NCBI GenBank assembly: GCA_964431285.1
Contig: CAYSJO010000896.1
Span: forward strand, 1 to 63,964
Length of the DNA: 63,964 bases
Direction: 5' to 3'
Source of the DNA: an uncultured Planctomycetaceae bacterium
GTDB taxonomy: Bacteria; Planctomycetota; Planctomycetia; Planctomycetales; Planctomycetaceae
Below are positions 41,169 through 58,329 of this stretch, in pieces. A model generated the notes under the pieces. That model was not told the DNA's origin and ran no database searches. It saw nothing but the letters and a program-made list of their open reading frames with translations. The position numbers and the translations under genes are program-made. How positions within the stretch are numbered: position 1 is the stretch's first letter; each line of letters begins with the position of its first letter.

Positions 41169-41996
41169 ATGAATCGTCTCGTCTGGCTCAATCGTCGCGT
41201 TTGTCTCACTTTTGTGATTGGTCTCATGGCGTGCGCTGACGCACAAGCGCAGGGACTGATCTGGTCACTGCCGGAAGACGGTAGTTGGGTGCGCTACGAA
41301 GGCACCTACACACAGGAAGAAGTTCGACCGGACGCGACCGGCAACCTTATCCTACAGTGGGTTCGGCACCTGACGATTAAGTCGGTCGGCAGGGCTCAGG
41401 CAGATTATCGCGGGCAGATGGTTGACTGCCGCTGGATCGAAATCAAGCTTCAAACGGGTCGTATTCTGGACGGACGTGTGGACACCGGATCAGTTGGAGA
41501 GCGCATCTACAAAATACTGGTCCCTGAGCCCAGAGTACTGGGTCGGCTGCAGGACGAGGAGGGGCTGCCGGTCTCCTACCTGCCCATTGTGCGGGGCTTT
41601 CGCAAGACAAATGACAAGGACCCGACACCGCGTGAAATCAAGACCGGCATTCTCCAGGTCTTTCCGATCATTTCACTGATTCGTCACTACAAGAGCATGG
41701 ACGCGTCGGATGTACCTGCGAGTGTCGCGGTCGGCCTGAATGATTATCCCACAACAGTTTTGACTGGTTCGGTGGTTCAGGAAAGTCGCACAACTCGGGT
41801 GACGCACGAGACGAAGGAGATGCACCGGAACGACGAATTCCCCTTTGGGCTCGTTCAGTGGAAAATCGAAATCGTTGAAGACCGGAAGGGCGAAGTCCTG
41901 CCACGCTCTGAATTTGCTTTCGCGTCCAAGATCGAAGTCGAAATGACCGCTCGAGAAACCGGCACTGACGCGACCAGCGAACTTGCGGTTGAGTAA
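41169..41996 (+). CDS. secreted protein of unknown function
   Basis: Signal-like MNRLVWLNRRVCLTFVIGLMACADAQA. Beta-rich composition, no recognised motif. Flanked by 533-nt and 391-nt intergenic regions. Confidence 0.5.
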   Translation: MNRLVWLNRRVCLTFVIGLMACADAQAQGLIWSLPEDGSWVRYEGTYTQEEVRPDATGNLILQWVRHLTIKSVGRAQADYRGQMVDCRWIEIKLQTGRILDGRVDTGSVGERIYKILVPEPRVLGRLQDEEGLPVSYLPIVRGFRKTNDKDPTPREIKTGILQVFPIISLIRHYKSMDASDVPASVAVGLNDYPTTVLTGSVVQESRTTRVTHETKEMHRNDEFPFGLVQWKIEIVEDRKGEVLPRSEFAFASKIEVEMTARETGTDATSELAVE

Positions 41997-42387
41997 GTTC
42001 GCGTCCGACGCTCCGCCACGACACGTCTTAATGAACGCGGGCGGCCGCTACCACGATGTTCGCGGCCCGATGATGTGTCTGCCCGGCTAATCTGCCGAAA
42101 ATCGCAGCTGACGACTTCCCACGCGCTGGGTCGAGTGCACTACTACTGTTCAGTGCCAGGGCGTGCCGACACGCTGTGTACTTAAGTATAGTTTCTGCAA
42201 AAATCTGGGACAGCGTTGACTATTTGACGAATGTAAATACCATGATAGAGGTGATGGTCTGTCCGGCTGCGCTGATGAGTTTCGGACTGTCGAGTCATTG
42301 TACGTAAGGCCAACCCTCGCCCAGAAGGTTCAGTCATCCAAATCATCTGGCATTTCGACTTACCCTCTTTAAAGGGAGTTCGAGACA

Positions 42388-44547
42388 GTGAAGCGACTCT
42401 GCACGCCACTCTGTGTCCTGACAGTTCTTGCCATGATCGCTACCTCGGCTGACGCTGAGTCTGGTGCGACGGGTGCTGAACTCAGCCGGACTCTGACCGC
42501 GGAAAACAAAGAACTCGGCATTGAGGCCAAACCGATTGGCCTTGTCGATGACATGACTTACCTCCGCAGGACGTCGGTGGACCTGATTGGAAGGATTCCC
42601 ACGCATGAGGAAGTCGAGCAGTACCTGGCTTGGTCACCCACCGACCGACGCAGCCAATTGATCGATCGACTCATGGCCGATTCCCGGTTTGTCGACCGTT
42701 GGACGACGTTCTTTGCCGATATGCTCCGCCTGCGGTCCAATGCACCGGGTGGAGCGGCGGCCCTGGCATTCGTTCATAAGGCTATAGAAGAGGACATTCC
42801 TTACGACGAAATGGCACGTCGCTTCATCTCAGCCAACGGCAAGGCTGGAGCTGTTCCCGAGGTCGCGTACGTGCTGGGCGACAACGCCGATCCGATGGCC
42901 CTTGCTGGCGTCACCGCTCAGGTTTTCATGGGCATCCGGATCTCGTGTGCCCAGTGCCACGATCACCCGTTCGACAAGTGGACCCAGGAAGACTTCTACG
43001 GTTTCGCGGCATTCTTTGGGAAGACGCGGCGGTACGAGAATGACTTCACGAACACGATTTACACGTCGGAAGTCAAAATGTCATCCGTGCTCTGGCCACC
43101 CGAAGGTGAAGTTCCGGCCAGTGAGCGTAAGCCGGCGCTGCCGAAGTTCCTGGTCGATCTGATCGAGTCGAAGTCTAACTCTGAATACATCGCTCGCCTG
43201 GAACGCCAGCGCAAGGCTGAGCAGGATCTGATTGAAGCCGCCCTCGCTGAGAAGGCAAAGACCGCCGATCTCGATTCGCTGCTGGGCGATGCAGCCGAGC
43301 GGGCTCTGGAAGGTGCTTTGCGAGGAAAAAAAGACGCCGTCTCAGACGAAGCGAGAAGAGAACGCGAAGCGATCGATCTGACGGCCAGCTACTACAATTC
43401 CAGTGAACTTCGCACGGAACTGGCCGGTCTGATCGCAAATCCGAGGAATCGTTACTTCGCATCGTGCTTCGTGAATCGCGTCTGGGCCGATCTGGTCGGA
43501 CGCGGCATCGTCAACCCGATCGATGACTTCAGTGATGGGAACAAACCGTCACATCCGCAGACGCTGGACTTTCTGGCGAACGAGTTCATCGCCAGCGGGT
43601 TCCAGATCAAGCCGATCATCAAAATGATCGTCACCAGCGAACCATACATGCGAGGCCAGGCGGTTGGCTTTGATGCTCTGCAGACCGAAGAGCTGCAGTC
43701 CGCGTTCCTTGCTGCTCCGCCTCGGCGAATGCTGAGTGAAGTCCTCTACGATTCGATCGTCACGGCGGGACATCTCTTTGAGTACAAGTACCCGCAGGGC
43801 GCCAACATGAGGACCATCTCGAACCGCATTCGAGTCGCCATCCCAAAAGAAGGCGAAGAAGACGTGGTGGTACCTCAAGCGCTGGTGGCCAACGCTGGAG
43901 CGGCTATGAAGCCAAGTATGAAAGCTCAAATGGCTTCCCTGCCGGGTTACAGTCTTGAAGCTGGCATCGAACTCGATTTCGACGCCGTTCTGAAAAAGGC
44001 CGTGAACGAAGCCCGGGGGGAAACAGTCGAAGTTGAAGCCATGAAGGTGAAGTCGGCTGAAGAAATCGAAGCGGAGCGTATGCAAATGGAAGGTACGACC
44101 CGCCGCCGTTACACCTACATTTACCGCACTGTCGAGCGGACCTTTGACGACAATCCCATATTCAGCTCATCCTTCCGCATGGCATCTCCAGCCAACCCGG
44201 AGCACTTTGTTCGTATCTTCGGTCAGACCGATCGTGCCGAACTTGGTGTCCCGCGGGATCATGCTCCGAGCATGCGGCAGGGTTTGATGATGCTCAACGG
44301 AAAAATGACTCATGAAGCGTCGCGAGTTGGTTCGTTCGAACCTATGCACCAACTGCTTGTGGGTAAGAATGCTGATCTCAACGAAGCAGTGAAACTGGCC
44401 TATGTTGAGGTCCTGACACGTCAACCGGATGCTGACGAGATTGCAATGGCGGCGGCAATTGTTAGCGACGGCGATACATTGCTCGACGGCATGGCCGATC
44501 TTCGGTGGGTCCTCCTGAACTCAAACGAGTTCCGTTACCTGCCATAA
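42388..44547 (+). CDS. DUF1549/DUF1553 domain protein (PSD1-type)
   Basis: GTG start with GGGAG upstream. Signal peptide. DLIGRIPTHEEVEQYL (DUF1549), ISCAQCHDHPFDKW, FVNRVWADLVGRGIVNPIDDF (DUF1553). No N-terminal cytochrome-c domain seen. Confidence 0.9.
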   Translation: MKRLCTPLCVLTVLAMIATSADAESGATGAELSRTLTAENKELGIEAKPIGLVDDMTYLRRTSVDLIGRIPTHEEVEQYLAWSPTDRRSQLIDRLMADSRFVDRWTTFFADMLRLRSNAPGGAAALAFVHKAIEEDIPYDEMARRFISANGKAGAVPEVAYVLGDNADPMALAGVTAQVFMGIRISCAQCHDHPFDKWTQEDFYGFAAFFGKTRRYENDFTNTIYTSEVKMSSVLWPPEGEVPASERKPALPKFLVDLIESKSNSEYIARLERQRKAEQDLIEAALAEKAKTADLDSLLGDAAERALEGALRGKKDAVSDEARREREAIDLTASYYNSSELRTELAGLIANPRNRYFASCFVNRVWADLVGRGIVNPIDDFSDGNKPSHPQTLDFLANEFIASGFQIKPIIKMIVTSEPYMRGQAVGFDALQTEELQSAFLAAPPRRMLSEVLYDSIVTAGHLFEYKYPQGANMRTISNRIRVAIPKEGEEDVVVPQALVANAGAAMKPSMKAQMASLPGYSLEAGIELDFDAVLKKAVNEARGETVEVEAMKVKSAEEIEAERMQMEGTTRRRYTYIYRTVERTFDDNPIFSSSFRMASPANPEHFVRIFGQTDRAELGVPRDHAPSMRQGLMMLNGKMTHEASRVGSFEPMHQLLVGKNADLNEAVKLAYVEVLTRQPDADEIAMAAAIVSDGDTLLDGMADLRWVLLNSNEFRYLP

Positions 44548-44645
44548 ACTGTGTGTGATTTACGTCCCGCAGACGCGTCTCTGCCGGGCACTGCGAAACA
44601 AGGTTTACTCTTACCCCTCTGCTTCCGCTGAAAGGAACATGCACA

Positions 44646-45902
44646 ATGGTGGGTTGCCAGGACTACCGAGTCAGTCGCCGAGCTATGCTTGGAGCTTCCG
44701 CTGCAACGCTTATGGGTATGCAGGTCCGGGACCTGCTCGCGGCGAAGGGCCGTGATCACGAACCGACCGCCGACCACGTGATCTTCTTCTGGAATGGCGG
44801 CGGAATGACTCATTTGGATACGTGGGATCCAAAACCGGGCGCTCCGACTCAGGGCGAATTTGAGCCTATCGATACGTCAGCCCCAGGAATCCAGATCAGC
44901 GAGATTTTCCCGGAATTCGCCAAGGAAATGCACAATGTGTCGCTGGTCCGCTCAATCGCGGGCACACAGGGTGCCCATGGCCGTGCCAGTTATCTGGCGC
45001 AGACCAGTTACAACCAGACGGCCAATATCACGCACCCGGGTTTTGGCTCGGTGGTGGTGTCGGAAAAAGAAAAGCTGGGTGACCTGCCGGCGTATATCTC
45101 GATTAGCGGCCGCGCCCGGCGGGCGACCTACCTGGGGCAAAGCTGCGAGGCCTACTTTGTGGGCAGCCCCGGCGACAAGGACCCTTACCTTGCCTTCCCG
45201 GAAGGGATCACCAAGGTGCGTGGCAATAAGCGGTTAGACACGTTGGCGAAATTCAACGCCAAGTTCTCAAGCCGTACCACCAGCAAAGAGCTGGGCGCGA
45301 CCAAGACATCGGTCGAGGATGCCGTCAAGCTGATGCGCAGCCCGGCCCTCAAAGCGTTTGAACTGGACCATCTTCCTCTGACGGAGTTTGAGCGCTACGG
45401 CGACACTCCGTTTGGTCGAGGATGCCTGGTTGCGAAACAGCTCGTTGAGACGGGCGTCCGCTTCGTGCAGGTTAATCGCGGTGGATTCGACACCCACAGC
45501 AATAACTTTGAAGCCATGCGAAATCATGGTGACGTCATGGATCCGGCTCTCGGTTCCCTGATGCACGACCTGGACAAGACCGGTCTTCTGAAGCGCACGC
45601 TGGTCGTGATGCTCAGCGAATTTGGCCGGACGCCCCGCATTAATCGCAATGCTGGTCGTGACCACTATCCAGCAGTCTTCAGCTGCTTCATGGCTGGTGG
45701 CGGCATCAAGGGTGGCCAGGTCATCGGCTCGTCCGACAAGAACGGCGAACAGCCGCATGATCGCCCGGTTCTCATCCCCGAGTTGCACGCGACTCTGTGT
45801 CACGCTCTGGGCATCGATCCGAACAAAGAAGTCATGCCACCTCTGCAGCGTCCCATGAAGCTTGTCGATAAGGGCACGCCGATCATGGAAATGTTCGGCT
45901 AA
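44646..45902 (+). CDS. DUF1501 domain protein (sulfatase-fold, Tat signal)
   Basis: SRRAMLGASAATLMG, FWNGGGMTHLDTWDPKPGAP, LSEFGRTPRINRNAGRDHYP, MAGGGIKGGQVIGSSD. Confidence 0.9.
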   Translation: MVGCQDYRVSRRAMLGASAATLMGMQVRDLLAAKGRDHEPTADHVIFFWNGGGMTHLDTWDPKPGAPTQGEFEPIDTSAPGIQISEIFPEFAKEMHNVSLVRSIAGTQGAHGRASYLAQTSYNQTANITHPGFGSVVVSEKEKLGDLPAYISISGRARRATYLGQSCEAYFVGSPGDKDPYLAFPEGITKVRGNKRLDTLAKFNAKFSSRTTSKELGATKTSVEDAVKLMRSPALKAFELDHLPLTEFERYGDTPFGRGCLVAKQLVETGVRFVQVNRGGFDTHSNNFEAMRNHGDVMDPALGSLMHDLDKTGLLKRTLVVMLSEFGRTPRINRNAGRDHYPAVFSCFMAGGGIKGGQVIGSSDKNGEQPHDRPVLIPELHATLCHALGIDPNKEVMPPLQRPMKLVDKGTPIMEMFG

Positions 45903-45926
45903 GACCGAACGGACAACGCATTCCAA

Positions 45927-45960
45927 AGCCCGGCTTCTTTAACAGAAGCCGGGCTTTTTT
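45927..45960 (+). terminator. rho-independent terminator after DUF1501 gene
   Basis: Perfect 12-bp stem AGCCCGGCTTCT / AGAAGCCGGGCT, loop TTAAC, then TTTTTT. Confidence 0.7.
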
Positions 45961-46144
45961 AAAACTTCTATACGGCCACTGTTGAGCTCACCGCGGCAGT
46001 TCGTGCTTTCCGGTCTACTGACTTTTCGGTGTATGTGTATCCGTTGGCGTTCTCCTGATTGACGATGACGACTTTGCAGTTTACGTTGGTTGTCCTGTCG
46101 ATTCCCGCCTGACCTCACCCACTTTTTTTGCGTGGTTTTGATCT

Positions 46145-48607
46145 ATGAAACGTATCGCCCACTGCGCGCTTCTCGCGCTCGTCGTTGCCGGACCGCTGCT
46201 CAATTCGCAAGTCGCCTATTCACAGGCACCGGCGCCGATTCGAGGCTCGATCATTGAGGACCGGGCTGCGAAGAAACTCGTCGAGGCCGGCGACACTCGC
46301 TATGACGCCGACGAGGTCAAAAAGGCTGTCGAGGTGTGGCAGTCAGTGCTGGAACGTTACCCGACGAGCCGAGTGCGATTCGAAGCACACATGCGACTCG
46401 GGAACTACTTTCTCGAGCGGGATCGGGCATACGACAAAGCCCGCGTTCAGTTCGAAGCGGTCGCCATCGAACAGAACCGCAACGAAGAACAGCGAGCCGA
46501 AGCATCGTTGAAAATGGGCATGTGCTTTTACGAGGCCCGTAATTTCGGCAAGTGCTTCCAGGTAATGCGTGACGTCATCGCAGAATTCCCAGTCAGCAAA
46601 CAGGTGAATCAGGCCTACTACTACATTGGTCTCGGTCACTTTCAGCTTGGGCATTACAGCCGCGCGATCGCCGCTCTGGAAAAGGTCGGCACCTCAATGG
46701 GTGCTGATGACGATCAGATTCTGAAAGTCGAAGCCGGCAAGCGTTTGTTTGTGAAAATCGAGGACGCGGACCTGTCTGCACTCGATGTGGGCAAGGCCGT
46801 TATGGTGCAGTGCGAAGCGACAAGTGGCGATGTCGAAATCGTGGAATGCTTCCCTGTGGGTCGCAATGTCCGCATCGTCCTAGGTAGCATAGTGACACGA
46901 CTGGGTAAACCGAAACCCAAGAATGGTCAGCTCGAAGTCAAAGGGGACGACAAGGTCAAAGTCGTCTACATCGACGAGCATACAGCAGACAAGCAGTTTG
47001 ACCGGCAGGTACTGCACGAAGTCGCCGTCGTGGGCGATGGTGTCGTCGAGATTACCGACGGGGCGTTTGCGGAGACTCTGCAGGGAGTTGTGCTGGGCAA
47101 GTCGGTCAATGTTCAGACGAACGATCCCGATCGCGACCTGACTGACGATGCCGATCAGATTCAGGTTTCCGTACAGGTGTACCGAGCGAAAACCGACGAA
47201 GAGATCGAACAGGAAACAATCGAAGCTCTTCAGGCCGCTGAAGGCGAAGGTAGTGAGGCCGTTGAGCTTGACGAAGACGATCAGCCAAAGATCGATCGGT
47301 ACCGTAAAGTGGACGAAGTGGTGGTCACGCTGACTGAAGCCGTGATCGAAACGCTTCGGCCAGTCGACACGGGTGTTCTTGCTGATCCAGCATCGACCGA
47401 CCCAACAACGACTGCTCCGACTGAGGCAGCCCCCGCCGAGACGACACCGCCCGCTGCGGCGCCACCTGCTGACACTCCCAAGCCCGTCGCCACCGAGGAA
47501 AACTCCGAAGAGTTCGGCGGTACTAAAAAAGGCGAGGAAGCTCCAACGGCCCCCGTAGCTGTCGTCGAAGAGAAAGACGACTCAATCCACTCCGGCGTAT
47601 TTCGGTCGGCTGTCAGTCTCACACGTGCCGATGAGATCGTCGCCGGTGACGCAATCCTGCAGGCACTGCCGGGCGACGTTATTCGCATCGTCTACCAGGA
47701 CGAGAAGAACTCCACGGACGACACGATCGAAGTTCGTGCAGAAGCGAAGTGCATTGAAGGCAACCTGGGTGGTGTGCGTGTCACGCGGACTCAGATTTCT
47801 GACCGCGAACTTCGAGTGCGGACACGGCTGAAGACCGCTCACGCACTGACGAACATTGGTAATCGGTACAAAGAGTTTGGCCTGAAGAAGAACGCTGACG
47901 GCAAGTACCAGGCTGCATTGACACTGTGCGAAGACATCATGAATGAAGCTCGCCAGCTGGGTGGGCGACTGCTGGAAGAAACCTACGTCCAGCTTTGGAA
48001 AATCTACTTTGAAATGGACCGCCTGGAACTTGCCGCCGCGATGGCCCAGCGTCTCCAGCGGGAGTTCCCAAACAGCGGGTTTGTGGACGATGCTTTGCTG
48101 CAGCTTGCCGATGTTGCCCGTGAGCAAGGCAACCTCAACCGGGCGATTGGGATTTACAACCGGCTGGTGCGCATGGAAGGAAGCCAGCTACGAGGCGAAG
48201 CTCAATTCGGTGTCGGCGAATGCTATGAGAAAATGGCCGAAGGCGCTCAGGCCGGTGCTGGTTCAGAGCAGCTCTTCGATCGGGCGTTTCAGGAGTACAA
48301 GAAGGTCTTTGACGAGTTCCCAGACAGCGGTCGCGTGGGCGAGGCCGTGTCACGCATGGCGAACCATTACTACCGCCAGAAGGACTACGCCCGTGCGATC
48401 GATACGTTCGAGACCGTGTTGTCGAACTATCCAGATGCACGGTTCCTCGACGTAATCCTGTTCAACTACGGACGCTGTCTCTACCGCATGGAGAAGCGAA
48501 ATCAGGCACGTCAGCGGTTTGATCAGCTTATCGGGGACTATCCCGAAAGCCCACTCGCGGCAGATGCTCGCAAAATCTCAGAAGCTCTGGCACGTTCCGG
48601 TTTCTGA
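46145..48607 (+). CDS. secreted TPR - beta-module - TPR protein (820 aa)
   Basis: Signal peptide MKRIAHCALLALVVAGPLLNSQVAYSQA. YbgF-like TPRs at both ends. Central modules (FVKIEDADLS...VKVVYIDEHT and NVQTNDPDRDLTDDADQIQV...HSGVFRS...GDVIRIVYQDEKN), the second split by an acidic/Pro-rich insert. Confidence 0.75.
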   Translation: MKRIAHCALLALVVAGPLLNSQVAYSQAPAPIRGSIIEDRAAKKLVEAGDTRYDADEVKKAVEVWQSVLERYPTSRVRFEAHMRLGNYFLERDRAYDKARVQFEAVAIEQNRNEEQRAEASLKMGMCFYEARNFGKCFQVMRDVIAEFPVSKQVNQAYYYIGLGHFQLGHYSRAIAALEKVGTSMGADDDQILKVEAGKRLFVKIEDADLSALDVGKAVMVQCEATSGDVEIVECFPVGRNVRIVLGSIVTRLGKPKPKNGQLEVKGDDKVKVVYIDEHTADKQFDRQVLHEVAVVGDGVVEITDGAFAETLQGVVLGKSVNVQTNDPDRDLTDDADQIQVSVQVYRAKTDEEIEQETIEALQAAEGEGSEAVELDEDDQPKIDRYRKVDEVVVTLTEAVIETLRPVDTGVLADPASTDPTTTAPTEAAPAETTPPAAAPPADTPKPVATEENSEEFGGTKKGEEAPTAPVAVVEEKDDSIHSGVFRSAVSLTRADEIVAGDAILQALPGDVIRIVYQDEKNSTDDTIEVRAEAKCIEGNLGGVRVTRTQISDRELRVRTRLKTAHALTNIGNRYKEFGLKKNADGKYQAALTLCEDIMNEARQLGGRLLEETYVQLWKIYFEMDRLELAAAMAQRLQREFPNSGFVDDALLQLADVAREQGNLNRAIGIYNRLVRMEGSQLRGEAQFGVGECYEKMAEGAQAGAGSEQLFDRAFQEYKKVFDEFPDSGRVGEAVSRMANHYYRQKDYARAIDTFETVLSNYPDARFLDVILFNYGRCLYRMEKRNQARQRFDQLIGDYPESPLAADARKISEALARSGF

Positions 48608-48734
48608 AAGTTTCCCACGTCGTTACGTCATTCTGAGCACGATGTTCCACCACCTCTTTGCTGCCTTCAAATCCTCTGTTGGGCTCAACAGAAACAGACG
48701 AAGGCTGCGGAGTCTCAAACGAATGGTGATTGAT

Positions 48735-51700
48735 ATGAGCCGGGTCCTGAATGCGGTGTTCATTGCTGGTCTTCTCGCGGTCACATTTCCTTTGTCAGCC
48801 CAGGAGACGGGTGACACTCCGCCTGCTGACGACAGTGGTGGAATCGATGCTGTCAGCCAGGAAGCCACCAGACTGGAAGGAGAGCTTGGGAAGTACAAGG
48901 ACACCGCGCCTGAGGCCGGAGAGGCGTTGTTCAAGCTGACCGAGCTGTATCACTCTAACGGGCGGTCATTTGGCCTCGTTCGAGCAGCGCAGCGGTTTGT
49001 CGCTGCTCGTCCCACTGACACCCGGCATGCGGCTGTGATGCTCAGACTGGCGGACGGACTGGAGACACTTGCACGGCACAAGGAATTCACGGTCATCGCC
49101 CGGCAGTTCCTTACTCGCTACCCAAGTGCCCCTGAGTGTGCCGCGATGGAAGAGCGGCTAGCGGTGTCACTAGAGAAGACAGACCAGCGGGAAGATGCGG
49201 CAGTCGTCTATCAGAATCGCTGGCGACGTGAGCAGAATCCCAACGGACGTAAATGGGGTGTACGCGCCTGCCGTCTTTTCTCGCAGCTTGGCAATGCGAA
49301 CATCGTCATTGGAGCTGAACTCGCCGAGGAGATGTTCGACAAGCTGCCGAAAGATGAATTTGCTCGCAGTATGGGCGAGCGTTCTTACTGGGAGTGGCGA
49401 AGGGCCAGTCAATGGGCCAAAGCCAACGGAATGGGCGGCAAACTTGTTAAGTCAAACCTGGTCCGGCAGCCCGAGAAGAAACGTGAGATTCTGCGGACGA
49501 TGGCTGAGAATTACCGCAGTCTTGGCCAGTACACCAACGCTGTGGAAGTGCTCAAGCAGGTCCGCGCGATCCGCGACGATCAATGGTCGCTCAACTATCA
49601 CATTCAGTCTCTGTACGACTCGGCAGTTCCGGCGGCTCAGATGCAGGCACCCGTGCAGGAATATCTGCGTGAGCACCCCAAGCGCATGGATCGGTACGAG
49701 CGCATTGGCCTTTTGGCGCTGGCCTTTAATCGAGAGAACAACCCACAGCAGGCACTCAAACTGTTCCGCAGTCTGCTGGGTGTGATTCCGGCGACGCACA
49801 GTGTCGCGTCGCATTTTGTACAGCTCAACGGCACCGATCCGGCTCGGCTCGTGGACACGGAAAAGGCTCTGCGGGCCGCGATCGCGCAGTGCGATGCGGC
49901 GAATCCGTCACAGACCTGGGCGCTCCGATACCAGCTGGGGATCTCCCTCTTCCGAGATCGTCTGAAGGACAATGCAAAAGCAAAGGTGGCGCTGCGTGAG
50001 TTCATCCAGAAGTCACCGACGAATGATGGCAATGTCTGGAATGCCATCTCGTGGCTCCTGTCCAATGCCGAAAACGACAGCGAATTTCGCAGCGATGCCG
50101 CAATGATCATGAAGGTTCGACGGCAGTATCCGCACTGGTCGAACCTGCGTAGCTATCCGGGAAACTGGGCCAAGACGGCACTGATGAGCAAGGAGCCGGG
50201 TGTCTCGGCCCGTGGTGCTCTCTTGCAGAATCTTGTCGACCAGTCGGCCAAAGACCCTGTCTTTCAGCTCATCAGCCAGTTTCGCACGAGTGCAACGAAC
50301 GAACGCGAGGGCCAGCTCCGTGCGAAACTTGGCGAGCCCGCACTCTTCAATACCTACAGCCTGGAAGCCAAACGCTGGAACCTGTACGAGCTGGGTTCCT
50401 ACTACCAGCGCTACTCACCTGGCGAACAACGCAAGCTGTCACCTGGTTACTGGGGCCGGCTCATCGAACTGTTTCCGAAAGAGCCGTCGTATCGATATTC
50501 GTATCTGAGTGATGCTACAGACTATGGCACGCCTGAAGAAGCCAAAGAAGCGGCACTGAAGATACTTGAGCTGGAGCCGACGGGAGTCAGTCCAGACGTG
50601 TGGCGTCGGATTGCCATGGCTGGCGACAAGAACATGGACGCTGACCTGGTTCGCAAAGCGGTCGCGTACGCAAAGAAATCGTACGCCACGTTTGGTGTCA
50701 CCAATCATCAGTATCTGACGGGAATTGGTGACACGCTGCTGAGAATGGAACTCGAAAACGAAGCAGTTGCACTGTGGAGTGAAGTTGCAAAGCCCGGCCT
50801 TACCGGTGGCGAAGCACGTGATTCAGCCTCGAAGCTTCTTGCGAAGATGGAAGACCCCCGACAGAAGATCGCGTTCCTGAAGCAGCGGTTTCTGCAGGAC
50901 ACCGACAATTTCGCTCGATATGGATCATGGCTTGGCGATCTGCAGCTTCGCACGGGAGACGTAGCAGGCTTTGAATCCACCATGCGTCAACTCAAAAAAC
51001 GCATGGACGATCGACCGTTCCGACCCACGGACATAAATGCGTATGACCTGCACTACGCATTGCATTACTACCGGACCAGTCATGCCGATTATCGGGTTAA
51101 CCCTGAAGTGGAGAATACTCCAGAGAACATTGCTCGCGTCGATCGAGCGATCGCAGATGTGCAATATGACTGGCCCTCGGCGCAGGCGGCTTTGTTCCTG
51201 CTGGAAGCTGAAGAACCCGGGACACAAAAGCCCATGAACCGGCTTCTGGCCTGGCAACGAGTGACACAGCAGATCCACGGTGATTCACACCGATGGGATC
51301 AGTTGATCGGCTTTGCGTCACGCGCCATCGTCGCCAATGACTACAGCGTCGCTGCCACCCTGTTGACCGGGATGCTGGAAAACTTCAAGGCAACGGAAGT
51401 TGGTCGTCTACAACGTGGCCGTACAATGGTCGGGCAATGCTATGCCCGCCTGGGCTCAGTTGGCCTGACAATCGATGAAAACAGCCCGCTGGCTCCTCTG
51501 CTGCAAGCGGCCTTGTATCTGCGACTGGGTGACGAGCGACTCGCACTCGACACATACGTTGCCAACAAGGCATTGTACGATCAGCACCGCGATGAAGTGC
51601 CTGTCGATCTGACCGTATTCATCTGCGAAAACATGCTCGCCGCTGGCGGTGAAGAGAACCACAACAAGGTCGAGGACATTCTGCGTGGCTGGATCATCAA

Positions 51701-54700
51701 GAACAGTGAGCTGACCACTGTCAAAGACGACATCAAAGCTCAGATCCAGTTCCTGCTTGCGAAGAACTTCTTTGGGTCCCGCCGCTTCGACGTTGCCCGC
51801 AGTGAGTATCAGACAGTCATCGACCGCTATCCGGAAACGGTCTTTGCCGTCGAAGCCGAGTTCGGCATCGGCGAGACCTTCATGGCTCAGAAGGTGTATG
51901 ACCAGGCCGAACTGGTCTTCGAAAAACTGGCTAACAGCCGAGATTCCGAGATCATCGTACGGGCTGAGTTCCTGCGTGGAGTCCTGTCACATCGGCGCGG
52001 CGACAACGAAGAAGCTCGAGATATCTTCCGCACGGTGCTGGAGCGCGTTCCGAATATCGATCTTGCGAATCAGGCTCTGTACAACCTGGCGGAAGTTTAC
52101 GGCGATGAAGAACGTTACATGGACCAGTTGCAGTTGCTGATGACCGTCGGACGTCTCGGGCGCGTCAGCAAGCGGCAGCATGCTCCCGGCCTGCCCCTGT
52201 CCATCGTTGTACAGGACAGCGACCTGGGGATCAGCCGCGGACACAACCGCATTCCAGTCATCATCACGACTGTCCCTGGTGGCGATGAGGAACTGGTTTA
52301 CCTGACGAGCGGTGGGGCAGGCAAAGGCCTGTTCCGGGCCGACGTCGACACGGAACTGGGTCCAATCACCAAGGGTGACAGAGTTCTTCAGCTCACGGGT
52401 AAGGACACGATCAAGTCCGATTATCCCGACGAATTCAAGTCCGAGTTTAAGAGCGTTCCTCTATCGGATGTGGAGATTCGGATTGCCGCGGACGGCCAGT
52501 TCGAAGTCGCATCGAGCAAAATCATCGACGAGGAAGAAGAGTCCTTCAGTGATCGTCTCGAACGTGAAGCTCGCGAAGAAGAACTTGCTGACGCCCGCCA
52601 GTCACAGCAGCGACCGACGAACCAGATCAAGCCTGGTAACCCGATCTATCTTCGCGTGAAGGACGCTGACCGCGATCTCGGCGACGAGAAGGACACGATT
52701 GTGACCAAGCTCGTCGCTGACAGTGGCGACCAGGTTCAAGTCACGTTGAACGAGACGGAACCGCACTCGGGTATCTTTGAAGGCTACGCCAAGACCGGTG
52801 AGCTGCCAGCCGGTGCCCTCGCGACTGATACCGCCATCGATCACAACCCGCTGATGTCGATCGACCGCGATCCGGCAACGTTCTGGCTCAGCGAACCGGA
52901 TGGTGCGACTCCGAAACTGCTGACGGTCGACATGAAAGACCTGAAGTCTGTGTCGCGAGTGAAGTTCCACACACCGAAGCCTGACGAAAACGCTCCTGTG
53001 AGGGCCGAACTGCAGGCAAGTTATGACGGGCAGTTCTGGTTCCGTGTCGCTGCTCACCCGGCGATTCCGAATGCACCCAAGGTCGGCACCGAAGACTACG
53101 GTGCCATGAAGTTCCGCCTCTACAGGGGTAATACCACAAGTTACACGACATGGCAGCAGGTGCTGTCGCTCGCGAATGGAGAGCCGCTTCAGGAGAGTGA
53201 AGTTGTGGATGGTCAACTCGTCTGGAATCGTCCAGAAGTTGACGAAGCTGACAAAAACCCGATGAGTTACGTAACAGGCGTGTGGTACGGTAAGTTCGTG
53301 CAGCAAAAGTCAGGTGCTGTGCGATTCGCACCGCGGGGCACGCGGACAGGTATGTCGGTCAATGGCCGCTTGGAGATGGAACTTGGCCCCGGTAATCGCA
53401 CGGTTGACGTGTGGCTGGACAAAGGCGTCCACGACCTGACCATCTTCTGCTCGGCACACCCGAACCAGCAGATTCTTGAAGTTGTTCGAGCACGTTCCGA
53501 TCTCAATCGGCAACAGATTGTCTTCAGTCCGTTCCTGACCAGCGACTTCGATCTGTCTCAGTTTGCACCACCCGAAGTTGCCGCAGCCGACACGGGGCCA
53601 ACGGATGGGGAGACAACTGCCGAAGAGGGACAGCCGACACCAGCAGAACCAGAGGCTGATGTCACACTCGACCTTGAGACAGTTCAGCTGGCAAAGACGA
53701 CCGAGCAGTTCGCCGTCACGGAACCGGCGGACCTGCCCAAGTCGATTGGTTTCTGGCAAAACCTCGAGGACGTTGCGAGTTGGGAATTCGATGCTCCGGC
53801 CGGAATCTACGACGTCTGGCTTGAGTACGCACACCAGTATGGAAGTGCAAGAGTTCGTGTCGAGCTGGGTGATCAGCGATTCACAGCTCCCGTTCCAGCC
53901 ACAGGCAACTACTCGACCTACCGCAAAGAGCGGTTCGGCACGATCGTGATCGACGAGCCAGGCAAAGCCAAACTGGTCGTGCGGCCAGACACGCTTGGCA
54001 ATGGCGTGCTGATGAACCTCCGCAAAGTGGAACTGCGAGCTGCCAGCGGAACACGGGTTGTGTTGGCGGACACTTCGTGGGAATTCCGCTTCGACCCTCA
54101 CGACGTGCGCTACACGCGACTCGTTATCAACGAATACCTCGGTGAGGCCGTCGCGATCAGCCACATTGAAGTGTCTGGCGAAGACATCAAGGCTCCGTTC
54201 ATTCCCACGGAGTCCGATGTTCTGGCTCTCGCTCAGAATGATCAACTGGAGATTGCCGGCGGTGACGTCGTCACGGCGACATACACGGATGAAGTGACGC
54301 AGATCAATTCCGGAGCCAGTCGACTTCTGGCCGGCAAACTGCAGGCGACGTACTTCAACGGTTCAGTGTCTCCGATTGCGTACGACTTCATTCGACAGAA
54401 CAACGGTGCTGTCGCCAATGTGCGGAAACGCCTGAAGCGAGTCGACCCCGGTGAGCGAGTCACTGTAGAGATCACCGACTACGACCGCGACATCTCCGTT
54501 TCTCGTGACAAGCTGCAGTTCGAAGTCAGTGTGAACGACGGCGAACCAATCACGCTGACAGCAACCGAAACCGAAGAAAACACCGGTCTCTTCACGAAGG
54601 AAGTTGACACGGCCGCGGTCGCCGAGGGAGACAAGCTGGTCGTCAAAGAGGGAGACCGTATCAACATCAAGTACATCGATGAGCAGAACACATTCCCAGG

Positions 54701-56708
54701 CCACTCAGTTCCGCGTGAGTCAGTGGTCTACGTAAATCGTCCAACAGAGGGCCTGATTCGCATTCTTGAATCGAAGGTCATTCCGCCTCCGGAAGGGTCC
54801 AAGCAACGGCCAGGTTTCATATATCAGATTCCGAAAGCCGAACAGCTCGCCGACGCCGGAGAGGTTGCAGCACTGGGTCCTGAAGAGGCCGAACCAGGTG
54901 AAACGGAACCGGCCGGGACAGAGCCGGGCGAGACGGAGCCAGCCGGAACCAAACCCGATTCCGAGGCCACTCCGACGACCGCCGGCGAGACTGAACCGGC
55001 TGCCGACTCCGATGCGGCGACACTTATCACGACAAACGTAGCGTTTGAAGCTCCGTTGACCGTCGAGGTGATTGATCCTGATGCCGCGAAAGACAGCGAG
55101 AGTGAAATCACGGTGCGGCTGACAACCACTGATGGAGCAACCGTTGATGTGCTTTGTCGGATTTCATCGGCATTCACAAATGTGCCGAACATCGACGGTG
55201 AGGACTGGGCTCTCGAAGAGGGTCGATTCGTTGGACAGATCGTGATGCAGCTTGGTTCGAAGGCCAGCCCGGTCGTCGTGCCAGTCACGTCTGAGATGCC
55301 ACGAAGTCTGATTGGTGGTGGGATACTGGCCGAGGAAGAGGGCATGTCGAATATGGACATGGGCCTTGTGGCGGCCGTGCTCAACCTGACGGGCAAAGAC
55401 CGAATTACAGGAACTTACAACGATGAGCGACGGCCGGACGGTAAACCAGCCGCCCTGCCGAGCTATGGCCGTTTGATCTCCAACGGTGAACTGGCGTCGG
55501 TCGATCGCGACTACGACAAGCCGGTAGAGAGCCTGCATGTTGGCGAAAAACTGTTCCTGGTCGTTACTGATCCTGATCAGGACTCATCCGACGAACGGGA
55601 CATGGTCGACATCGAGATCACGTCTGAGTTTGGTGAGAAAGAGTCGGTCCAGTTGACTGAAACGCTTGCTCACAGTGGAGTTTTCACTGGCTCGCTGACC
55701 TTGAAGTCGACCGAGGAACCGACGGCCGGCAACATCGAAGCGAACAACCCACACGTCGAAGCGTACTTCGGTGACACATTGACCGTGACGTATCTCGATC
55801 CGGCAGCGAGCAACGACGAGGGCCAGCTCGAATTGACGACAACATTACCTGTTGTCATCGGGACGGATGGCCTTGTGTCAGCATTCAGCAAGACGTTCAA
55901 CAACGAAACACTAGCCGTCGAAACGCGTTTCCACATTGCCGAGAGTTACTTCGAACTCTTCAAGAGCCACAAGAATCTGGGACGTCAGGAAGAATCCGCT
56001 ATCGATCTCGACGCCGGTCGTCGTGTGCTTCGAGAAGTGATGGAAGACTTCCCCGATCCGAAGTACCAGCCGCGAATTCTGTACCTGCTGGGTCAGTTCG
56101 CTCAGGAGCTTGGGGGCATCGAAGAAGCCACTGATTCCTACGAACAGATCGTGCGACAGTTCCCGGAGCATCCACTTGCTTCGGACGCACAGTACAAGCT
56201 GGCTCAGACGTACGAAGAGGCCGGTGACTTTGACGAAGCTCTGGAAGCTTATGTCACGCTGGCGGCGACGTATCCGAAGAGTCCGCTGATCGCGAACGTG
56301 ATGATTCGTATCAGCGATCACTTCTACAAAGGTGAGGAGTACCCGATCGCTGCAGAAGTCGGCAAGAAGTTCCTCGAAAAGTTTGAGGGACATCAGTATG
56401 CGTCGCGAATGGCGTTCCGCGTTGGCCAGTGCTACTACAAGGCAGAGGACTACACGGTGGCGGGCAAGTCGTTCGACGAGTTTGCCAAGATTTTCCCGGA
56501 CGATGACCTGGCGTCAGACTCTCTGTTCTGGGCTGGTGAATCATTCCGCATGGCCAGCAACAACCGCGACGCGTTCCGTCGGTACAACCGATGCCGCTGG
56601 GATTATCCGGCCAGCGATGCAGCCAAGTATGCCCGCGGTCGACTGGCACTGCCTGAAATGCTTCAGCAATTTGAGGCGGAAGCCAACAGCGTCGAGGACA
56701 ACAACTAA
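48735..56708 (+). CDS. giant secreted TPR - multidomain beta region - TPR protein (about 2657 aa)
   Basis: ATG at 48735 gives the signal-like MSRVLNAVFIAGLLAVTFPLSAQE; the ORF-track start at 48519 overlaps the previous gene. About 1150 aa of helical TPR-like sequence come first. Then at least five copies of the same beta-module as the upstream gene, plus discoidin-like, PA14-like and CBM-like segments. C-terminal YbgF-like TPRs. Confidence 0.8.
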   Translation: MSRVLNAVFIAGLLAVTFPLSAQETGDTPPADDSGGIDAVSQEATRLEGELGKYKDTAPEAGEALFKLTELYHSNGRSFGLVRAAQRFVAARPTDTRHAAVMLRLADGLETLARHKEFTVIARQFLTRYPSAPECAAMEERLAVSLEKTDQREDAAVVYQNRWRREQNPNGRKWGVRACRLFSQLGNANIVIGAELAEEMFDKLPKDEFARSMGERSYWEWRRASQWAKANGMGGKLVKSNLVRQPEKKREILRTMAENYRSLGQYTNAVEVLKQVRAIRDDQWSLNYHIQSLYDSAVPAAQMQAPVQEYLREHPKRMDRYERIGLLALAFNRENNPQQALKLFRSLLGVIPATHSVASHFVQLNGTDPARLVDTEKALRAAIAQCDAANPSQTWALRYQLGISLFRDRLKDNAKAKVALREFIQKSPTNDGNVWNAISWLLSNAENDSEFRSDAAMIMKVRRQYPHWSNLRSYPGNWAKTALMSKEPGVSARGALLQNLVDQSAKDPVFQLISQFRTSATNEREGQLRAKLGEPALFNTYSLEAKRWNLYELGSYYQRYSPGEQRKLSPGYWGRLIELFPKEPSYRYSYLSDATDYGTPEEAKEAALKILELEPTGVSPDVWRRIAMAGDKNMDADLVRKAVAYAKKSYATFGVTNHQYLTGIGDTLLRMELENEAVALWSEVAKPGLTGGEARDSASKLLAKMEDPRQKIAFLKQRFLQDTDNFARYGSWLGDLQLRTGDVAGFESTMRQLKKRMDDRPFRPTDINAYDLHYALHYYRTSHADYRVNPEVENTPENIARVDRAIADVQYDWPSAQAALFLLEAEEPGTQKPMNRLLAWQRVTQQIHGDSHRWDQLIGFASRAIVANDYSVAATLLTGMLENFKATEVGRLQRGRTMVGQCYARLGSVGLTIDENSPLAPLLQAALYLRLGDERLALDTYVANKALYDQHRDEVPVDLTVFICENMLAAGGEENHNKVEDILRGWIIKNSELTTVKDDIKAQIQFLLAKNFFGSRRFDVARSEYQTVIDRYPETVFAVEAEFGIGETFMAQKVYDQAELVFEKLANSRDSEIIVRAEFLRGVLSHRRGDNEEARDIFRTVLERVPNIDLANQALYNLAEVYGDEERYMDQLQLLMTVGRLGRVSKRQHAPGLPLSIVVQDSDLGISRGHNRIPVIITTVPGGDEELVYLTSGGAGKGLFRADVDTELGPITKGDRVLQLTGKDTIKSDYPDEFKSEFKSVPLSDVEIRIAADGQFEVASSKIIDEEEESFSDRLEREAREEELADARQSQQRPTNQIKPGNPIYLRVKDADRDLGDEKDTIVTKLVADSGDQVQVTLNETEPHSGIFEGYAKTGELPAGALATDTAIDHNPLMSIDRDPATFWLSEPDGATPKLLTVDMKDLKSVSRVKFHTPKPDENAPVRAELQASYDGQFWFRVAAHPAIPNAPKVGTEDYGAMKFRLYRGNTTSYTTWQQVLSLANGEPLQESEVVDGQLVWNRPEVDEADKNPMSYVTGVWYGKFVQQKSGAVRFAPRGTRTGMSVNGRLEMELGPGNRTVDVWLDKGVHDLTIFCSAHPNQQILEVVRARSDLNRQQIVFSPFLTSDFDLSQFAPPEVAAADTGPTDGETTAEEGQPTPAEPEADVTLDLETVQLAKTTEQFAVTEPADLPKSIGFWQNLEDVASWEFDAPAGIYDVWLEYAHQYGSARVRVELGDQRFTAPVPATGNYSTYRKERFGTIVIDEPGKAKLVVRPDTLGNGVLMNLRKVELRAASGTRVVLADTSWEFRFDPHDVRYTRLVINEYLGEAVAISHIEVSGEDIKAPFIPTESDVLALAQNDQLEIAGGDVVTATYTDEVTQINSGASRLLAGKLQATYFNGSVSPIAYDFIRQNNGAVANVRKRLKRVDPGERVTVEITDYDRDISVSRDKLQFEVSVNDGEPITLTATETEENTGLFTKEVDTAAVAEGDKLVVKEGDRINIKYIDEQNTFPGHSVPRESVVYVNRPTEGLIRILESKVIPPPEGSKQRPGFIYQIPKAEQLADAGEVAALGPEEAEPGETEPAGTEPGETEPAGTKPDSEATPTTAGETEPAADSDAATLITTNVAFEAPLTVEVIDPDAAKDSESEITVRLTTTDGATVDVLCRISSAFTNVPNIDGEDWALEEGRFVGQIVMQLGSKASPVVVPVTSEMPRSLIGGGILAEEEGMSNMDMGLVAAVLNLTGKDRITGTYNDERRPDGKPAALPSYGRLISNGELASVDRDYDKPVESLHVGEKLFLVVTDPDQDSSDERDMVDIEITSEFGEKESVQLTETLAHSGVFTGSLTLKSTEEPTAGNIEANNPHVEAYFGDTLTVTYLDPAASNDEGQLELTTTLPVVIGTDGLVSAFSKTFNNETLAVETRFHIAESYFELFKSHKNLGRQEESAIDLDAGRRVLREVMEDFPDPKYQPRILYLLGQFAQELGGIEEATDSYEQIVRQFPEHPLASDAQYKLAQTYEEAGDFDEALEAYVTLAATYPKSPLIANVMIRISDHFYKGEEYPIAAEVGKKFLEKFEGHQYASRMAFRVGQCYYKAEDYTVAGKSFDEFAKIFPDDDLASDSLFWAGESFRMASNNRDAFRRYNRCRWDYPASDAAKYARGRLALPEMLQQFEAEANSVEDNN
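54891..54950 (+). repeat. 2 x 30-nt in-frame tandem repeat encoding EPGETEPAGT twice
   Basis: gaaccaggtgaaacggaaccggccgggaca / gagccgggcgagacggagccagccggaacc. The peptides are identical. 8 of 10 codons differ, all at synonymous third positions. Confidence 0.75.
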
Positions 56709-56728
56709 GTAGCAGGCGAAAGTGCTGC

Positions 56729-56767
56729 ACAGGCAGGCGGGATGTTGAATTCCGCCTGCCTGTTTTC
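56729..56767 (+). terminator. rho-independent terminator after the giant gene
   Basis: Perfect 12-bp stem ACAGGCAGGCGG / CCGCCTGCCTGT, 11-nt loop, then TTTTCG. Confidence 0.7.
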
Positions 56768-56873
56768 GTAGCTACATGAGCGATCATGGCGTCTTGCGTG
56801 TAAGTTCTCTGGACGCGTCGCCACTCGATTGCGCACACTCGATCGCACGTAAGTCGTCCTGAGCCAAAAGGTT

Positions 56874-58313
56874 TTGATCATGCTCACGATCCCCGGCCCG
56901 CGTTCGCAGTACTGTGACGGAATGTCACGGCGAAACTGGTTGCAAATTGGCGGTCTGGCGATGGGTGGCCTGTCGCTTCCCGCGATCCTGCGAGCGGAAT
57001 CGGCGAGCCAGTTGTCGCGCAACGAACCGGGCAACAAGCGACGTGCCAAAGGCATCATTATGGTGCTTTTGCCTGGTGGGCCGTCGCATATGGACATGTA
57101 CGATTTGAAGCCTGAGGCTCCTTCCGAAGTCCGGGGAGAGTTTCAACCGATCGAAACGCGTGTCCCAGGTATCGACATTTGCGAATTGATGCCGCGGCTG
57201 GCAGGCATGACCGATAAGCTGACGATCATTCGGTCGCTGATGGGTTTTCTCAATGACCACAACACCCACTGGTGTACGACGGGTTGGGAATCTCATCCTC
57301 CGATGCGATCATCGCCCATCGTCCAAGGATATCCGCCTGGCGACTGGCCGACAATTGGTGCGATATTGTCGCGACAATTCGGCCCGCGAGTAACGGGAGT
57401 GCCTCCGTCGGTCGATTTATCGCCAGTAGACCCGGATGCGAGATTCATCATGCGAACCTCGCCGGGTCAGCCAGGTTATTTGGGAGCTGCTCACGCCGGG
57501 TTCGAAGTTCAGGCTGTGGACCGACGTAACATCATGCTCAATGGAGTCGACCTGCCCCGCCTGGGAGATCGACAGGCATTGCTGAGCAGTTTTGATCGAT
57601 TCCGGCGGGACGTAGATCGCAGTGCGCCGACGGATGGAATCGACGAGTTTCATCGGCAAGCGATCGAGATGCTGACCTCTCCGCGTCTTGCCGAGGCCCT
57701 CGACCTGAGCCGAGAGGAGCCCGGAGTTCTGAATCGGTACGGCCTTGATGCCAGCTACCCGAACGAACGAGACGGAAAAACGCTGCTGGACCAGTTTCTG
57801 CTGGCTCGTCGAGTGATTGAAGCAGGGGCTCGCTGTGTCACATTGGCCTTCAGCCGCTGGCCGTTCGGTCGGATGCTGACCGGCGACTACAACTGGGACT
57901 GGCACAGAGATAACTTCAAAGAAGCCCGTGGTGCTCTGCCGCTGTTTGACATCGGCGTCTCGGCGTTGATTCAGGATCTGGAAGAACGCGGACTGCTGGA
58001 CGACATCGCCGTCGTCGCATGGGGAGAATTCGGCCGCACGCCGAAGATCAACGGAAATGCTGGCCGGGATCACTGGCCAAACGTCGGCGGCGCGCTGCTG
58101 GCTGGCGGCGGCCTGCAGTGCGGCCAGGTCATTGGCTCCAGCACACGACTGGGTGAGGAACCACTCAACCGGCCAGTCCATTTCCGCGAGGTCTTTGCTT
58201 CGCTGTACGAACGGCTGGGAATCGATGTCGCGACGACACAGTTCAACGATCTTGGGGGTCGACCTCAGTACCTGGTCGGTGATCACCGACCAATGCCAGA
58301 GCTGATCGGGTGA
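56874..58313 (+). CDS. DUF1501 domain protein (second copy, no adjacent DUF1549/1553 partner)
   Basis: N-terminus MLTIPGPRSQYCDGMSRRNWLQIGG, typical of planctomycete DUF1501. LLPGGPSHMDMYDLKPEAP, WGEFGRTPKINGNAGRDHWP, LAGGGLQCGQVIGSST. Confidence 0.9.
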   Translation: MIMLTIPGPRSQYCDGMSRRNWLQIGGLAMGGLSLPAILRAESASQLSRNEPGNKRRAKGIIMVLLPGGPSHMDMYDLKPEAPSEVRGEFQPIETRVPGIDICELMPRLAGMTDKLTIIRSLMGFLNDHNTHWCTTGWESHPPMRSSPIVQGYPPGDWPTIGAILSRQFGPRVTGVPPSVDLSPVDPDARFIMRTSPGQPGYLGAAHAGFEVQAVDRRNIMLNGVDLPRLGDRQALLSSFDRFRRDVDRSAPTDGIDEFHRQAIEMLTSPRLAEALDLSREEPGVLNRYGLDASYPNERDGKTLLDQFLLARRVIEAGARCVTLAFSRWPFGRMLTGDYNWDWHRDNFKEARGALPLFDIGVSALIQDLEERGLLDDIAVVAWGEFGRTPKINGNAGRDHWPNVGGALLAGGGLQCGQVIGSSTRLGEEPLNRPVHFREVFASLYERLGIDVATTQFNDLGGRPQYLVGDHRPMPELIG

Positions 58314-58329
58314 GGATTCCTGGCGACGA

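Follow-up and report, generated by a model that had tools for sequence, protein, structure and literature searches.

Paralogous TPR-Ig-TPR proteins of a planctomycete: possible periplasmic scaffolds of a Tol/Agl-like envelope system

The subject of this analysis is a pair of adjacent genes, here called A and B, in the DNA of an uncultured Planctomycetaceae bacterium (GenBank assembly GCA_964431285.1, contig CAYSJO010000896.1; "the window" below is the whole stretch that was analysed, positions 1 to 63,964 of the forward strand). A and B encode colinear paralogs in which blocks of tetratricopeptide repeats (TPRs) are combined with immunoglobulin (Ig)-like modules that are homologous, judging by sequence profile and predicted structure, to the Ig domains of NmSLP, the surface-layer (S-layer) protein of the archaeon Nitrosopumilus maritimus. 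The reading that we favor, and hold only tentatively, is that the two proteins serve in the periplasm as scaffolds of an envelope system, Tol/Agl-like and proton-driven, of Planctomycetota and Verrucomicrobiota. It is drawn from their export signals, their construction from CpoB-type TPR and Ig-like domains, a degree of conservation like that of core genes, and a linkage to motor genes that extends over two phyla. The folds themselves are known; the novelty lies in an unannotated module family, in the TPR-Ig-TPR plan with its triple nesting, and in a gene cluster conserved across the PVC group (Planctomycetota, Verrucomicrobiota and relatives). A limited search of the literature found no prior description of the module family, the architecture or the cluster, but one may exist.

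A paralogous pair in a bracketed two-gene unit

Gene A (46145..48607, plus strand; assigned from its open reading frame (ORF) and domain searches) encodes 820 amino acids; gene B (48735..56708, plus strand) encodes 2657. The reading frame of B is open from 48519, and starting at an alternative ATG (48723) instead of the ATG at 48735 would lengthen the product to 2661 residues; the A-B spacer is 115-127 nt, depending on the choice of start (127 nt for ATG 48735). A preliminary description of this DNA, made from its letters alone, had proposed that the two are adjacent paralogs sharing a TPR - beta-module - TPR plan and transcribed as a bracketed two-gene unit. Both proposals stand, and every peptide that it quoted is present in the translations. 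A 49-461 aligns with B 1014-1459 (E=1e-13) and A 482-808 with B 2313-2596 (E=8e-21), in colinear order: A is the counterpart of the last two thirds of B, less three modules and a set of nested domains.

As to the boundaries, RNA folding and reading of the sequence place a hairpin with a U6 tail, resembling an intrinsic terminator, at 45925..45962 (plus strand). The hairpin itself (45925-45957; -25 kcal/mol, z -6.8) is followed by the U6; it closes an upstream DUF1501 gene and forms the 5' limit of the unit. The 3' limit is a strong hairpin with a UUUU tail, identified in the same way, 16 nt past the stop codon of B (56724..56772, plus strand; -34.3 kcal/mol, z -7.6). Folding the A-B spacer yields no hairpin of like strength (z -2.0). 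(A point of method: both bracketing hairpins are absent from a consensus terminator scan, which was set aside on the strength of direct folding. A search of positions 41000-59000 against Rfam gave no match at E<=0.1, so that no regulatory RNA was found around the unit.)

Protein A begins with a signal peptide (aa 1-26) and continues through a CpoB/YbgF-like TPR block (~40-185), two Ig-like modules and a helical linker to a C-terminal TPR block (~580-815). Its first module (aa 194-287; 46724..47005, on the plus strand like all features of A and B listed here) is recognized by a hidden Markov model (HMM) with an independent E-value (i-E) of 1.8e-38. The second (aa 314-347 + 474-528; 47084..47728) is, according to the HMM, a split copy, interrupted by an acidic, Pro/Thr/Glu-rich insert (aa 348-473) that retains 17-35% identity in orthologs.

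Protein B is built in the order signal peptide (aa 1-23), helical N-terminal region of ~980 aa, CpoB-like TPR block, five Ig-like modules and C-terminal CpoB/YbgF-like TPR block. The N-terminal region is described by no Pfam or NCBIfam family model and yields no TPR score; the earlier proposal that both proteins begin and end with TPR is thus right for A and for the C-terminus of B, and wrong for the start of B. The internal TPR block (aa 1003-1119; 51741..52091; placed by PDB sequence search) directly precedes the first Ig module and aligns with the N-terminal TPR of A; the C-terminal one occupies aa ~2430-2640 (56022..56654; TIGR02795 at 150 bits and PDB matches). Between them lie module 1 (aa 1151-1236; 52185..52442; HMM i-E 2.4e-8, with beta strands in an AlphaFold2 model); module 2 (aa 1296-1366 + 1826-1856; 52620..54302; HMM positions 1-73 and 63-93, and AlphaFold2), whose halves are parted by a nested insertion of ~460 aa; module 3 (aa 1901-1991; 54435..54707; i-E 1.6e-36); the divergent module 4 (aa ~2099-2248; 55029..55478; weak HMM matches at 2106-2141 and 2215-2233), in which an inserted helix and loop accompany a beta-sandwich that AlphaFold2 predicts at a local distance difference test score (pLDDT) of ~90; and module 5 (aa 2266-2364; 55530..55826; i-E 6.8e-41, AlphaFold2 and Foldseek). 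The array of five also holds nested lectin-like domains, and the Ig regions of both proteins are acidic (pI 4.35-4.5).

Identity and spread of the Ig-like module

The module is ~95 aa long and is present in two copies in A and five in B. The repeat is real rather than a product of chance, because an HMM made from five copies recovered a sixth that was outside its seed (module 1 of B), as well as the split copies. Near-invariant positions are G7, D16, D18, G52, F54, Y90 and D92. No Pfam-A model matches the module, even at E<=10 on isolated modules; precomputed match lists from newer Pfam releases for more than 200 orthologs contain TPR and discoidin families only; and Pfam, NCBIfam and PADLOC, applied to whole proteins and to isolated modules, offered neither a family for the module nor a defence-system match. 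The module thus does not map to a well-characterised Pfam family, an outcome that would have counted against the preliminary description.

That description had left the module unnamed; it can be named. An AlphaFold2 model of B 2095-2400, computed from a 28-sequence alignment, is all-beta with a pLDDT of 84, and its top PDB match in Foldseek is NmSLP (8c8k_A, E=3.2e-11), followed by the macroglobulin (MG) domains of complement and alpha-2-macroglobulin and by the Bacillus anthracis Sap S-layer. Searches of the PDB sequences with single beta regions as queries gave no match, and NmSLP was reached only by a 30-sequence profile; that profile of 30 modules finds 8c8k_A at E=1.8e-7 over 81 aligned residues, best on the ninth Ig domain. 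The motifs DPDxD, ETxxxTGxFxG and GDxxxxxYxD are common to the module and NmSLP. Because sequence profile and predicted structure single out the same protein, the module is identified as an Ig-like sandwich of the NmSLP S-layer type, homologous to the NmSLP Ig domains.

The ten Ig-like domains of NmSLP form an acidic array, in which D4 is nested within D3 (PMC11153153). The proteins under discussion resemble it (PDB 8c8k/8c8m) in module fold, in the three motifs, in acidic composition and in domain nesting. They differ in that NmSLP is an archaeal lattice protein without TPR, at ~15% identity, while A and B are proteins of diderm bacteria with their modules framed by TPR. A weaker likeness is to another planctomycete envelope protein, the anammox S-layer glycoprotein Kustd1514 (NF052345): a weak motif at B 2304-2374 (E=1.2e-5) reaches 22.9 bits where the model demands 1400, a single motif-level match and not family membership. 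The resemblance to MG domains of alpha-2-macroglobulin and complement (beta-sandwich topology, Foldseek E from ~1e-4 down to 1e-7) is structural only, since A and B have no thioester, no bait region and no Pfam MG match. A and B, then, carry Ig domains of the NmSLP type while belonging to no S-layer family model.

How widely is the module distributed? An exhaustive search of 1.84 billion representative proteins returned 4148 at E<=1e-3, of which 549 reach E<=1e-30. Of 147 further top-scoring representatives, 65 are like B (TPR and 4-5 modules) and 82 have no TPR and 4-43 tandem copies. Arrays reach 53 matched stretches in one protein, and the giants reach 7799 aa. The TPR-free giants come from metagenome-assembled genomes (MAGs) of Bacteroidota, Actinomycetota and Acidobacteriota, where they go by "hypothetical" or "large repetitive protein"; some bear DUF11, Big_8, BslA-like or IPTL-CTERM features. 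Although found in more than 4000 protein clusters, and in an archaeal S-layer of known structure, the Ig-like repeat has no Pfam model; it is a candidate new domain family, whose definition would aid the annotation of giant "hypothetical" proteins.

Lectin-like domains nested within B

The second module of B appears to house other domains. An AlphaFold2 model of B 1140-2000 (pLDDT 76) again has NmSLP as its top Foldseek match; further matches are the RsgI PA14 dyad, the anthrax protective antigen, and glycoside hydrolases that bear carbohydrate-binding modules (CBMs). Unspliced, the sequence gives a discoidin match at B 1371-1440 with 24.3 bits over profile positions 12-83; with 1365-1452 joined to 1777-1818 the score rises to 34.0 bits, against a Pfam cut-off of 28.2, and the match extends to positions 13-118 of 127. 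The discoidin (F5/8 type C) domain located by this spliced-sequence test (aa 1371-1450 + 1781-1814; 52845..54176) is itself split by a PA14-like region (~1500-1600), a Pro/Thr/Glu linker and a CBM35-like domain (1643-1779). HMM splits, the spliced Pfam test and secondary structure together indicate three levels of nesting: a predicted PA14-like and CBM35-like pair within a discoidin domain within Ig module 2. The CBM-like part (B 1632-1779) is cleanly missing from the Gemmatales and Opitutae orthologs. These domain assignments suggest that the insert attaches B to peptidoglycan or to another glycan.

(Long ORFs are also found on the minus strand inside B, at 52602-53306 and 53310-54245, one of which recurs in 27 related loci. 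Antisense ORFs of this kind, such as 52602-53306, were considered as genes and rejected: they are most likely a by-product of the conservation of B itself.)

TPR blocks, export signals and likely location

Pfam and NCBIfam recognize nothing in the ends of A and B other than TPR families (TPR_6, YbgF-type TIGR02795, BamD-like). Both proteins pass TIGR02795 (cut-off 90.1 bits): A at 109.9 bits, summed over 2 stretches, and B at 150.1 bits, summed over 4. Among PDB sequences, B 1003-1119 matches CpoB (6g5s_A, E=1.3e-4) and YbgF (2xev_A), and the C-terminal TPR of B matches 2xev_A and 6g5s_A at E ~5e-8. The natural proteins nearest to these blocks, CpoB/YbgF, BamD and SprE, are periplasmic. The model for the whole CpoB protein of the E. 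coli type (NF008068, cut-off 383 bits) gives 45.3 bits for A and 80.7 for B. Because both this model and the operon context fail, A and B are classed, on sequence, as proteins that contain CpoB-like TPR domains and are not CpoB. The BamD model (TIGR03302, cut-off 81.4 bits) gives A a marginal, TPR-driven 84.9 bits and B 63.8; the possibility that A is a BamD (YfiO)-like lipoprotein was discarded, there being no lipobox at its N-terminus.

The N-termini of A (...AYS|QAP) and B (...LSA|QET) read as cleavable Sec signals, in keeping with the signal peptides first assigned to them. In the orthologs of B this segment varies, yet always ends AxA|Q; the idea that it is a TolA/TonB-like membrane anchor was therefore rejected, since a variable segment that ends in this way is like a cleaved signal. 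By reading, the N-termini resemble signal-peptidase-I sites, and neither protein has a lipobox or a C-terminal sorting signal. The preliminary description had spoken of exoproteins and of "an envelope or extracellular scaffold". A pair of envelope scaffolds is retained here and the extracellular option disfavored: we infer that a periplasmic location is probably the right one, because the kin of the TPR blocks are periplasmic, sorting signals are lacking, the neighboring genes in relatives specify inner-membrane TolQ/TolR-like and exported proteins, and conservation is high.

Conservation of A and B and their linkage to motor genes

Homologs of A number more than 1100, the top 120 at 64-91% identity, and are named "TolA-binding protein" or "tetratricopeptide repeat protein" at source. 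Identity of A is 55-60% overall to Gemmatales and ~50% to Verrucomicrobia; region by region, its TPR blocks have 67-72% identity to Gemmatales and 58-60% to Verrucomicrobia, and its signal peptide and acidic insert are not conserved. In contigs sampled at one genome per species, A is found in Pirellulales-like marine MAGs, in Gemmatales (including Zavarzinella formosa DSM 19928), in a MAG labelled Singulisphaera and in Verrucomicrobiota (Opitutae, Verrucomicrobiae). Such conservation, far above what is usual for surface proteins, fits a machine part with several partners.

The two genes travel together. In 41 of the 42 loci that could be assessed (that is, those with enough downstream sequence) B comes after A, which bears out the expectation that the pair would recur in related genomes. 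Of 31 assessable loci, 30 have a gene of the MotA/ExbB family (TolQ-like) after B, at a distance of 39-77 nt in the three checked, and two ExbD/TolR genes follow the TolQ-like gene in most lineages (in some marine MAGs they lie a few kb upstream). The loci span Pirellulales-like MAGs, Gemmatales, the MAG labelled Singulisphaera and Opitutae. The motor proteins match Pfam MotA_ExbB and ExbD; their best NCBIfam matches are tolQ at 88-107 bits (TIGR02796, cut-off 221) and tolR at 20-28 bits (TIGR02801, cut-off 127), and they are called TolQ/TolR-like because both scores fall short of the equivalog cut-offs. The "unknown function" first assigned to the pair can, by virtue of this conserved linkage in relatives, be narrowed to that of a putative partner of a Tol/Agl-type motor.

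A distant locus (L049, 1-17231; GCA_041686775.1) has three tandem TPR-Ig paralogs of at least 766, 2526 and 1634 aa, followed by a 94-aa ORF, MotA_ExbB, ExbD, ExbD, a 147-aa ORF and a DUF4159 protein. The small ORFs of this locus might include a TonB/TolA-like transducer; both are unannotated, and the TonB/TolA models of Pfam match none of the relatives' genes that were scanned. In a Verrucomicrobiales MAG (L050, 7761-14389) the homolog of B is divided between ORFs of 756 and 1462 aa that overlap.

Upstream of A in the window is a second conserved association, recognized by Pfam and synteny: a gene pair for a PSCyt2-PSD1 (DUF1549/DUF1553) protein and a DUF1501 protein (42388..45902, plus strand), the former with a Sec signal and the latter with a Tat signal, by sequence reading. 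The pair precedes A in Verrucomicrobia and in the clade of the window, and L003, L030 and L051 are among the loci that have it; in Gemmatales (L016, L019) a PSCyt2-PSD1 gene starts just past the TolR-like genes, where the examined loci end. The upstream DUF1501 protein has 58% identity to its Opitutia neighbor and 30% to the window's own paralog at 56874, and on that comparison is taken as the ortholog of the DUF1501 neighbors across phyla rather than a chance paralog. The linkage provides a lead on large planctomycete families without known function. The paralog itself (56874-58313, plus strand) occupies the place usual for the TolQ-like gene, as it does in the window's closest relative (L001), which suggests that a lineage-specific rearrangement moved the motor genes elsewhere.

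A periplasmic scaffold for a proton-driven motor?

If A and B are periplasmic scaffolds, the following arrangement can be envisaged. The TolQ-like and the two TolR-like proteins would make up a stator, driven by protons, in the cytoplasmic membrane; its genes, placed just after B in most relatives, would in this genome have to lie at another site. The CpoB/YbgF-type TPR ends of A and B may be docking platforms for the periplasmic parts of the motor and for other envelope proteins, with the acidic Ig-like arrays as spacers spanning the periplasm. The discoidin/PA14-like/CBM-like cluster of B would grip a glycan, either peptidoglycan or a polysaccharide of an outer layer. Taken together, these parts would connect the energised inner membrane with the outer layers of the envelope, in the service of integrity, constriction or tethering.

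CpoB, ~260 aa long, combines a single TPR block with a trimerisation domain at its N-terminus; A (820 aa) and B (2657 aa) differ from it in having two TPR blocks around Ig arrays. The likeness to CpoB (YbgF) is in the TPR_6-rich blocks that pass TIGR02795 and in the TolQ/TolR-like genes that adjoin in relatives. As a TPR protein of the periplasm that is associated with Tol and connects TolA with PBP1B (PMC4458516), CpoB offers a precedent for the scaffold reading. The motor core of relatives also has the composition of the Agl-Glt core complex of Myxococcus (AglR, AglQ, AglS; GltC, GltD, GltE, GltG): one TolQ-like and two TolR-like genes together with TPR proteins that have signal peptides, an assembly whose function outside gliders is still called unknown (PMC3169522). 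The shared cluster logic is that of the A-B relatives only.

Several observations weigh against placing A and B beside such a motor. Neither the window nor L001 has a TolQ/TolR-like gene beside B, a difference from both the Tol-Pal operon and the Agl-Glt cluster, and tblastn with TolQ/TolR-like queries finds no motor gene anywhere in the 64 kb of the window; the motor link in this genome is consequently by homology only. In the 10-kb flanks of relatives no TolA/TonB-like transducer, TolB or Pal was recognized, and the TonB-like GltG is unseen among the relatives' scanned genes. The B homolog of L050 has neither A nor motor genes nearby. The TPR matches are generic, the TIGR02795 score being a sum over several repeats, and elsewhere the module is characteristic of proteins of the cell surface, among them an archaeal S-layer protein and giants with many repeats.

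That last point leads to the alternative with the best claim after the periplasmic scaffold, one that we nevertheless consider unlikely: that A and B are exposed on the cell surface or secreted, as an S-layer-like lattice or as an adhesin or scaffold, with their Ig arrays outside the outer membrane and the lectin-like domains on external polysaccharide. The homology of the module to the NmSLP Ig domains (PMC11153153), the acidity of the Ig regions, the weak match to the anammox Kustd1514 model, the preponderance of TPR-free giants (82 of 147) among the further best-scoring representatives, and the commonness of discoidin, PA14 and CBM folds in extracellular glycan-binding proteins are all in accord with such a location. 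The Kustd1514 score, however, is far below its cut-off; no outer-membrane translocation or anchoring signal can be recognized, either in the C-termini as read or by Pfam and NCBIfam; the flanking TPR blocks resemble periplasmic families; the linkage to inner-membrane TolQ/TolR-like genes is conserved; and 55-72% identity across orders is atypical of surface-exposed proteins.

Somewhat less likely still is a role in the capture and processing of glycan in the periplasm, in which B would hold a polysaccharide on which the DUF1501 and PSCyt2-PSD1 proteins act, and the TolQ/TolR-like motor would power a TonB-like import without a classical receptor. DUF1501 we take to be an alkaline-phosphatase/sulfatase-like family. 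The nested discoidin, PA14-like and CBM-like domains of B suit this proposal, as do the orthologous linkage of the PSCyt2-PSD1 and DUF1501 genes across phyla, on either side of the cluster, and the export signals read in both products; Planctomycetes, moreover, have an uncharacterised macromolecule uptake system (PMC5394234). Yet orthologs from Gemmatales and Opitutae have no CBM-like domain, the flanks contain no conserved transporter or outer-membrane receptor gene, a strong terminator parts DUF1501 from A in the window, and the proposal stacks one inference on another, as the roles of DUF1501 and PSCyt2-PSD1 are putative.

Most lineages that carry the cluster are not known gliders, nor are the Glt TPR proteins known to carry an Ig module of the A/B type. 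It is very improbable that the pair belongs to a motor for surface gliding like the Agl-Glt machine of Myxococcus: relatives do have the same gene logic (one TolQ-like, two TolR-like, exported TPR proteins; PMC3169522) and B does match GltE in NCBIfam, but this sole match to a Glt TPR protein (NF033758) has 21.4 bits against a cut-off of 225 and is confined to a TPR stretch (B 1074-1125), no other Glt components were found, and Luciano et al. make the case that motility is not driven by the core complex on its own (PMC3169522).

The periplasmic-scaffold reading can be carried further, to a bolder version that is doubtful: A, B, the TolQ-like and the two TolR-like proteins (and possibly PSCyt2-PSD1 and DUF1501) would constitute an unrecognised, PVC-wide, proton-powered trans-envelope machine in which giant TPR-Ig proteins replace TolA, TolB, Pal and CpoB. 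Many PVC bacteria divide without FtsZ. If such a machine exists, it could underlie the constriction of the outer membrane in FtsZ-less division, the "press-stud" contacts between the inner and outer membranes of planctomycetes, or a route of macromolecule uptake. Crateriform membrane contacts and the uptake system are features of Planctomycetes (PMC5394234). PVC bacteria, whose envelope and cell biology are atypical, have wide, invaginated periplasms. The set formed by A, B and the motor, in which a TolQ/TolR-type motor is linked, with high conservation across two phyla, to two unusual and putatively periplasmic TPR-Ig scaffolds, provides candidates that are genetically testable.

Other genes of the window

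Two further genes near the unit are common only to the window and L001: one on the minus strand (38746-40635) for a protein that combines an FHA-like (Yop-YscD_cpl) domain with an adenylate/guanylate cyclase, and one on the plus strand (41169-41996) for a 275-aa protein with a signal peptide and no family match. On the other side, convergent with the A-B unit, a minus-strand gene (58330-62481) encodes a large, exported-looking protein of 1382 aa with FG-GAP repeats, Calx-beta, an RTX nonapeptide repeat and a matrixin-like (Peptidase_M10) C-terminus.

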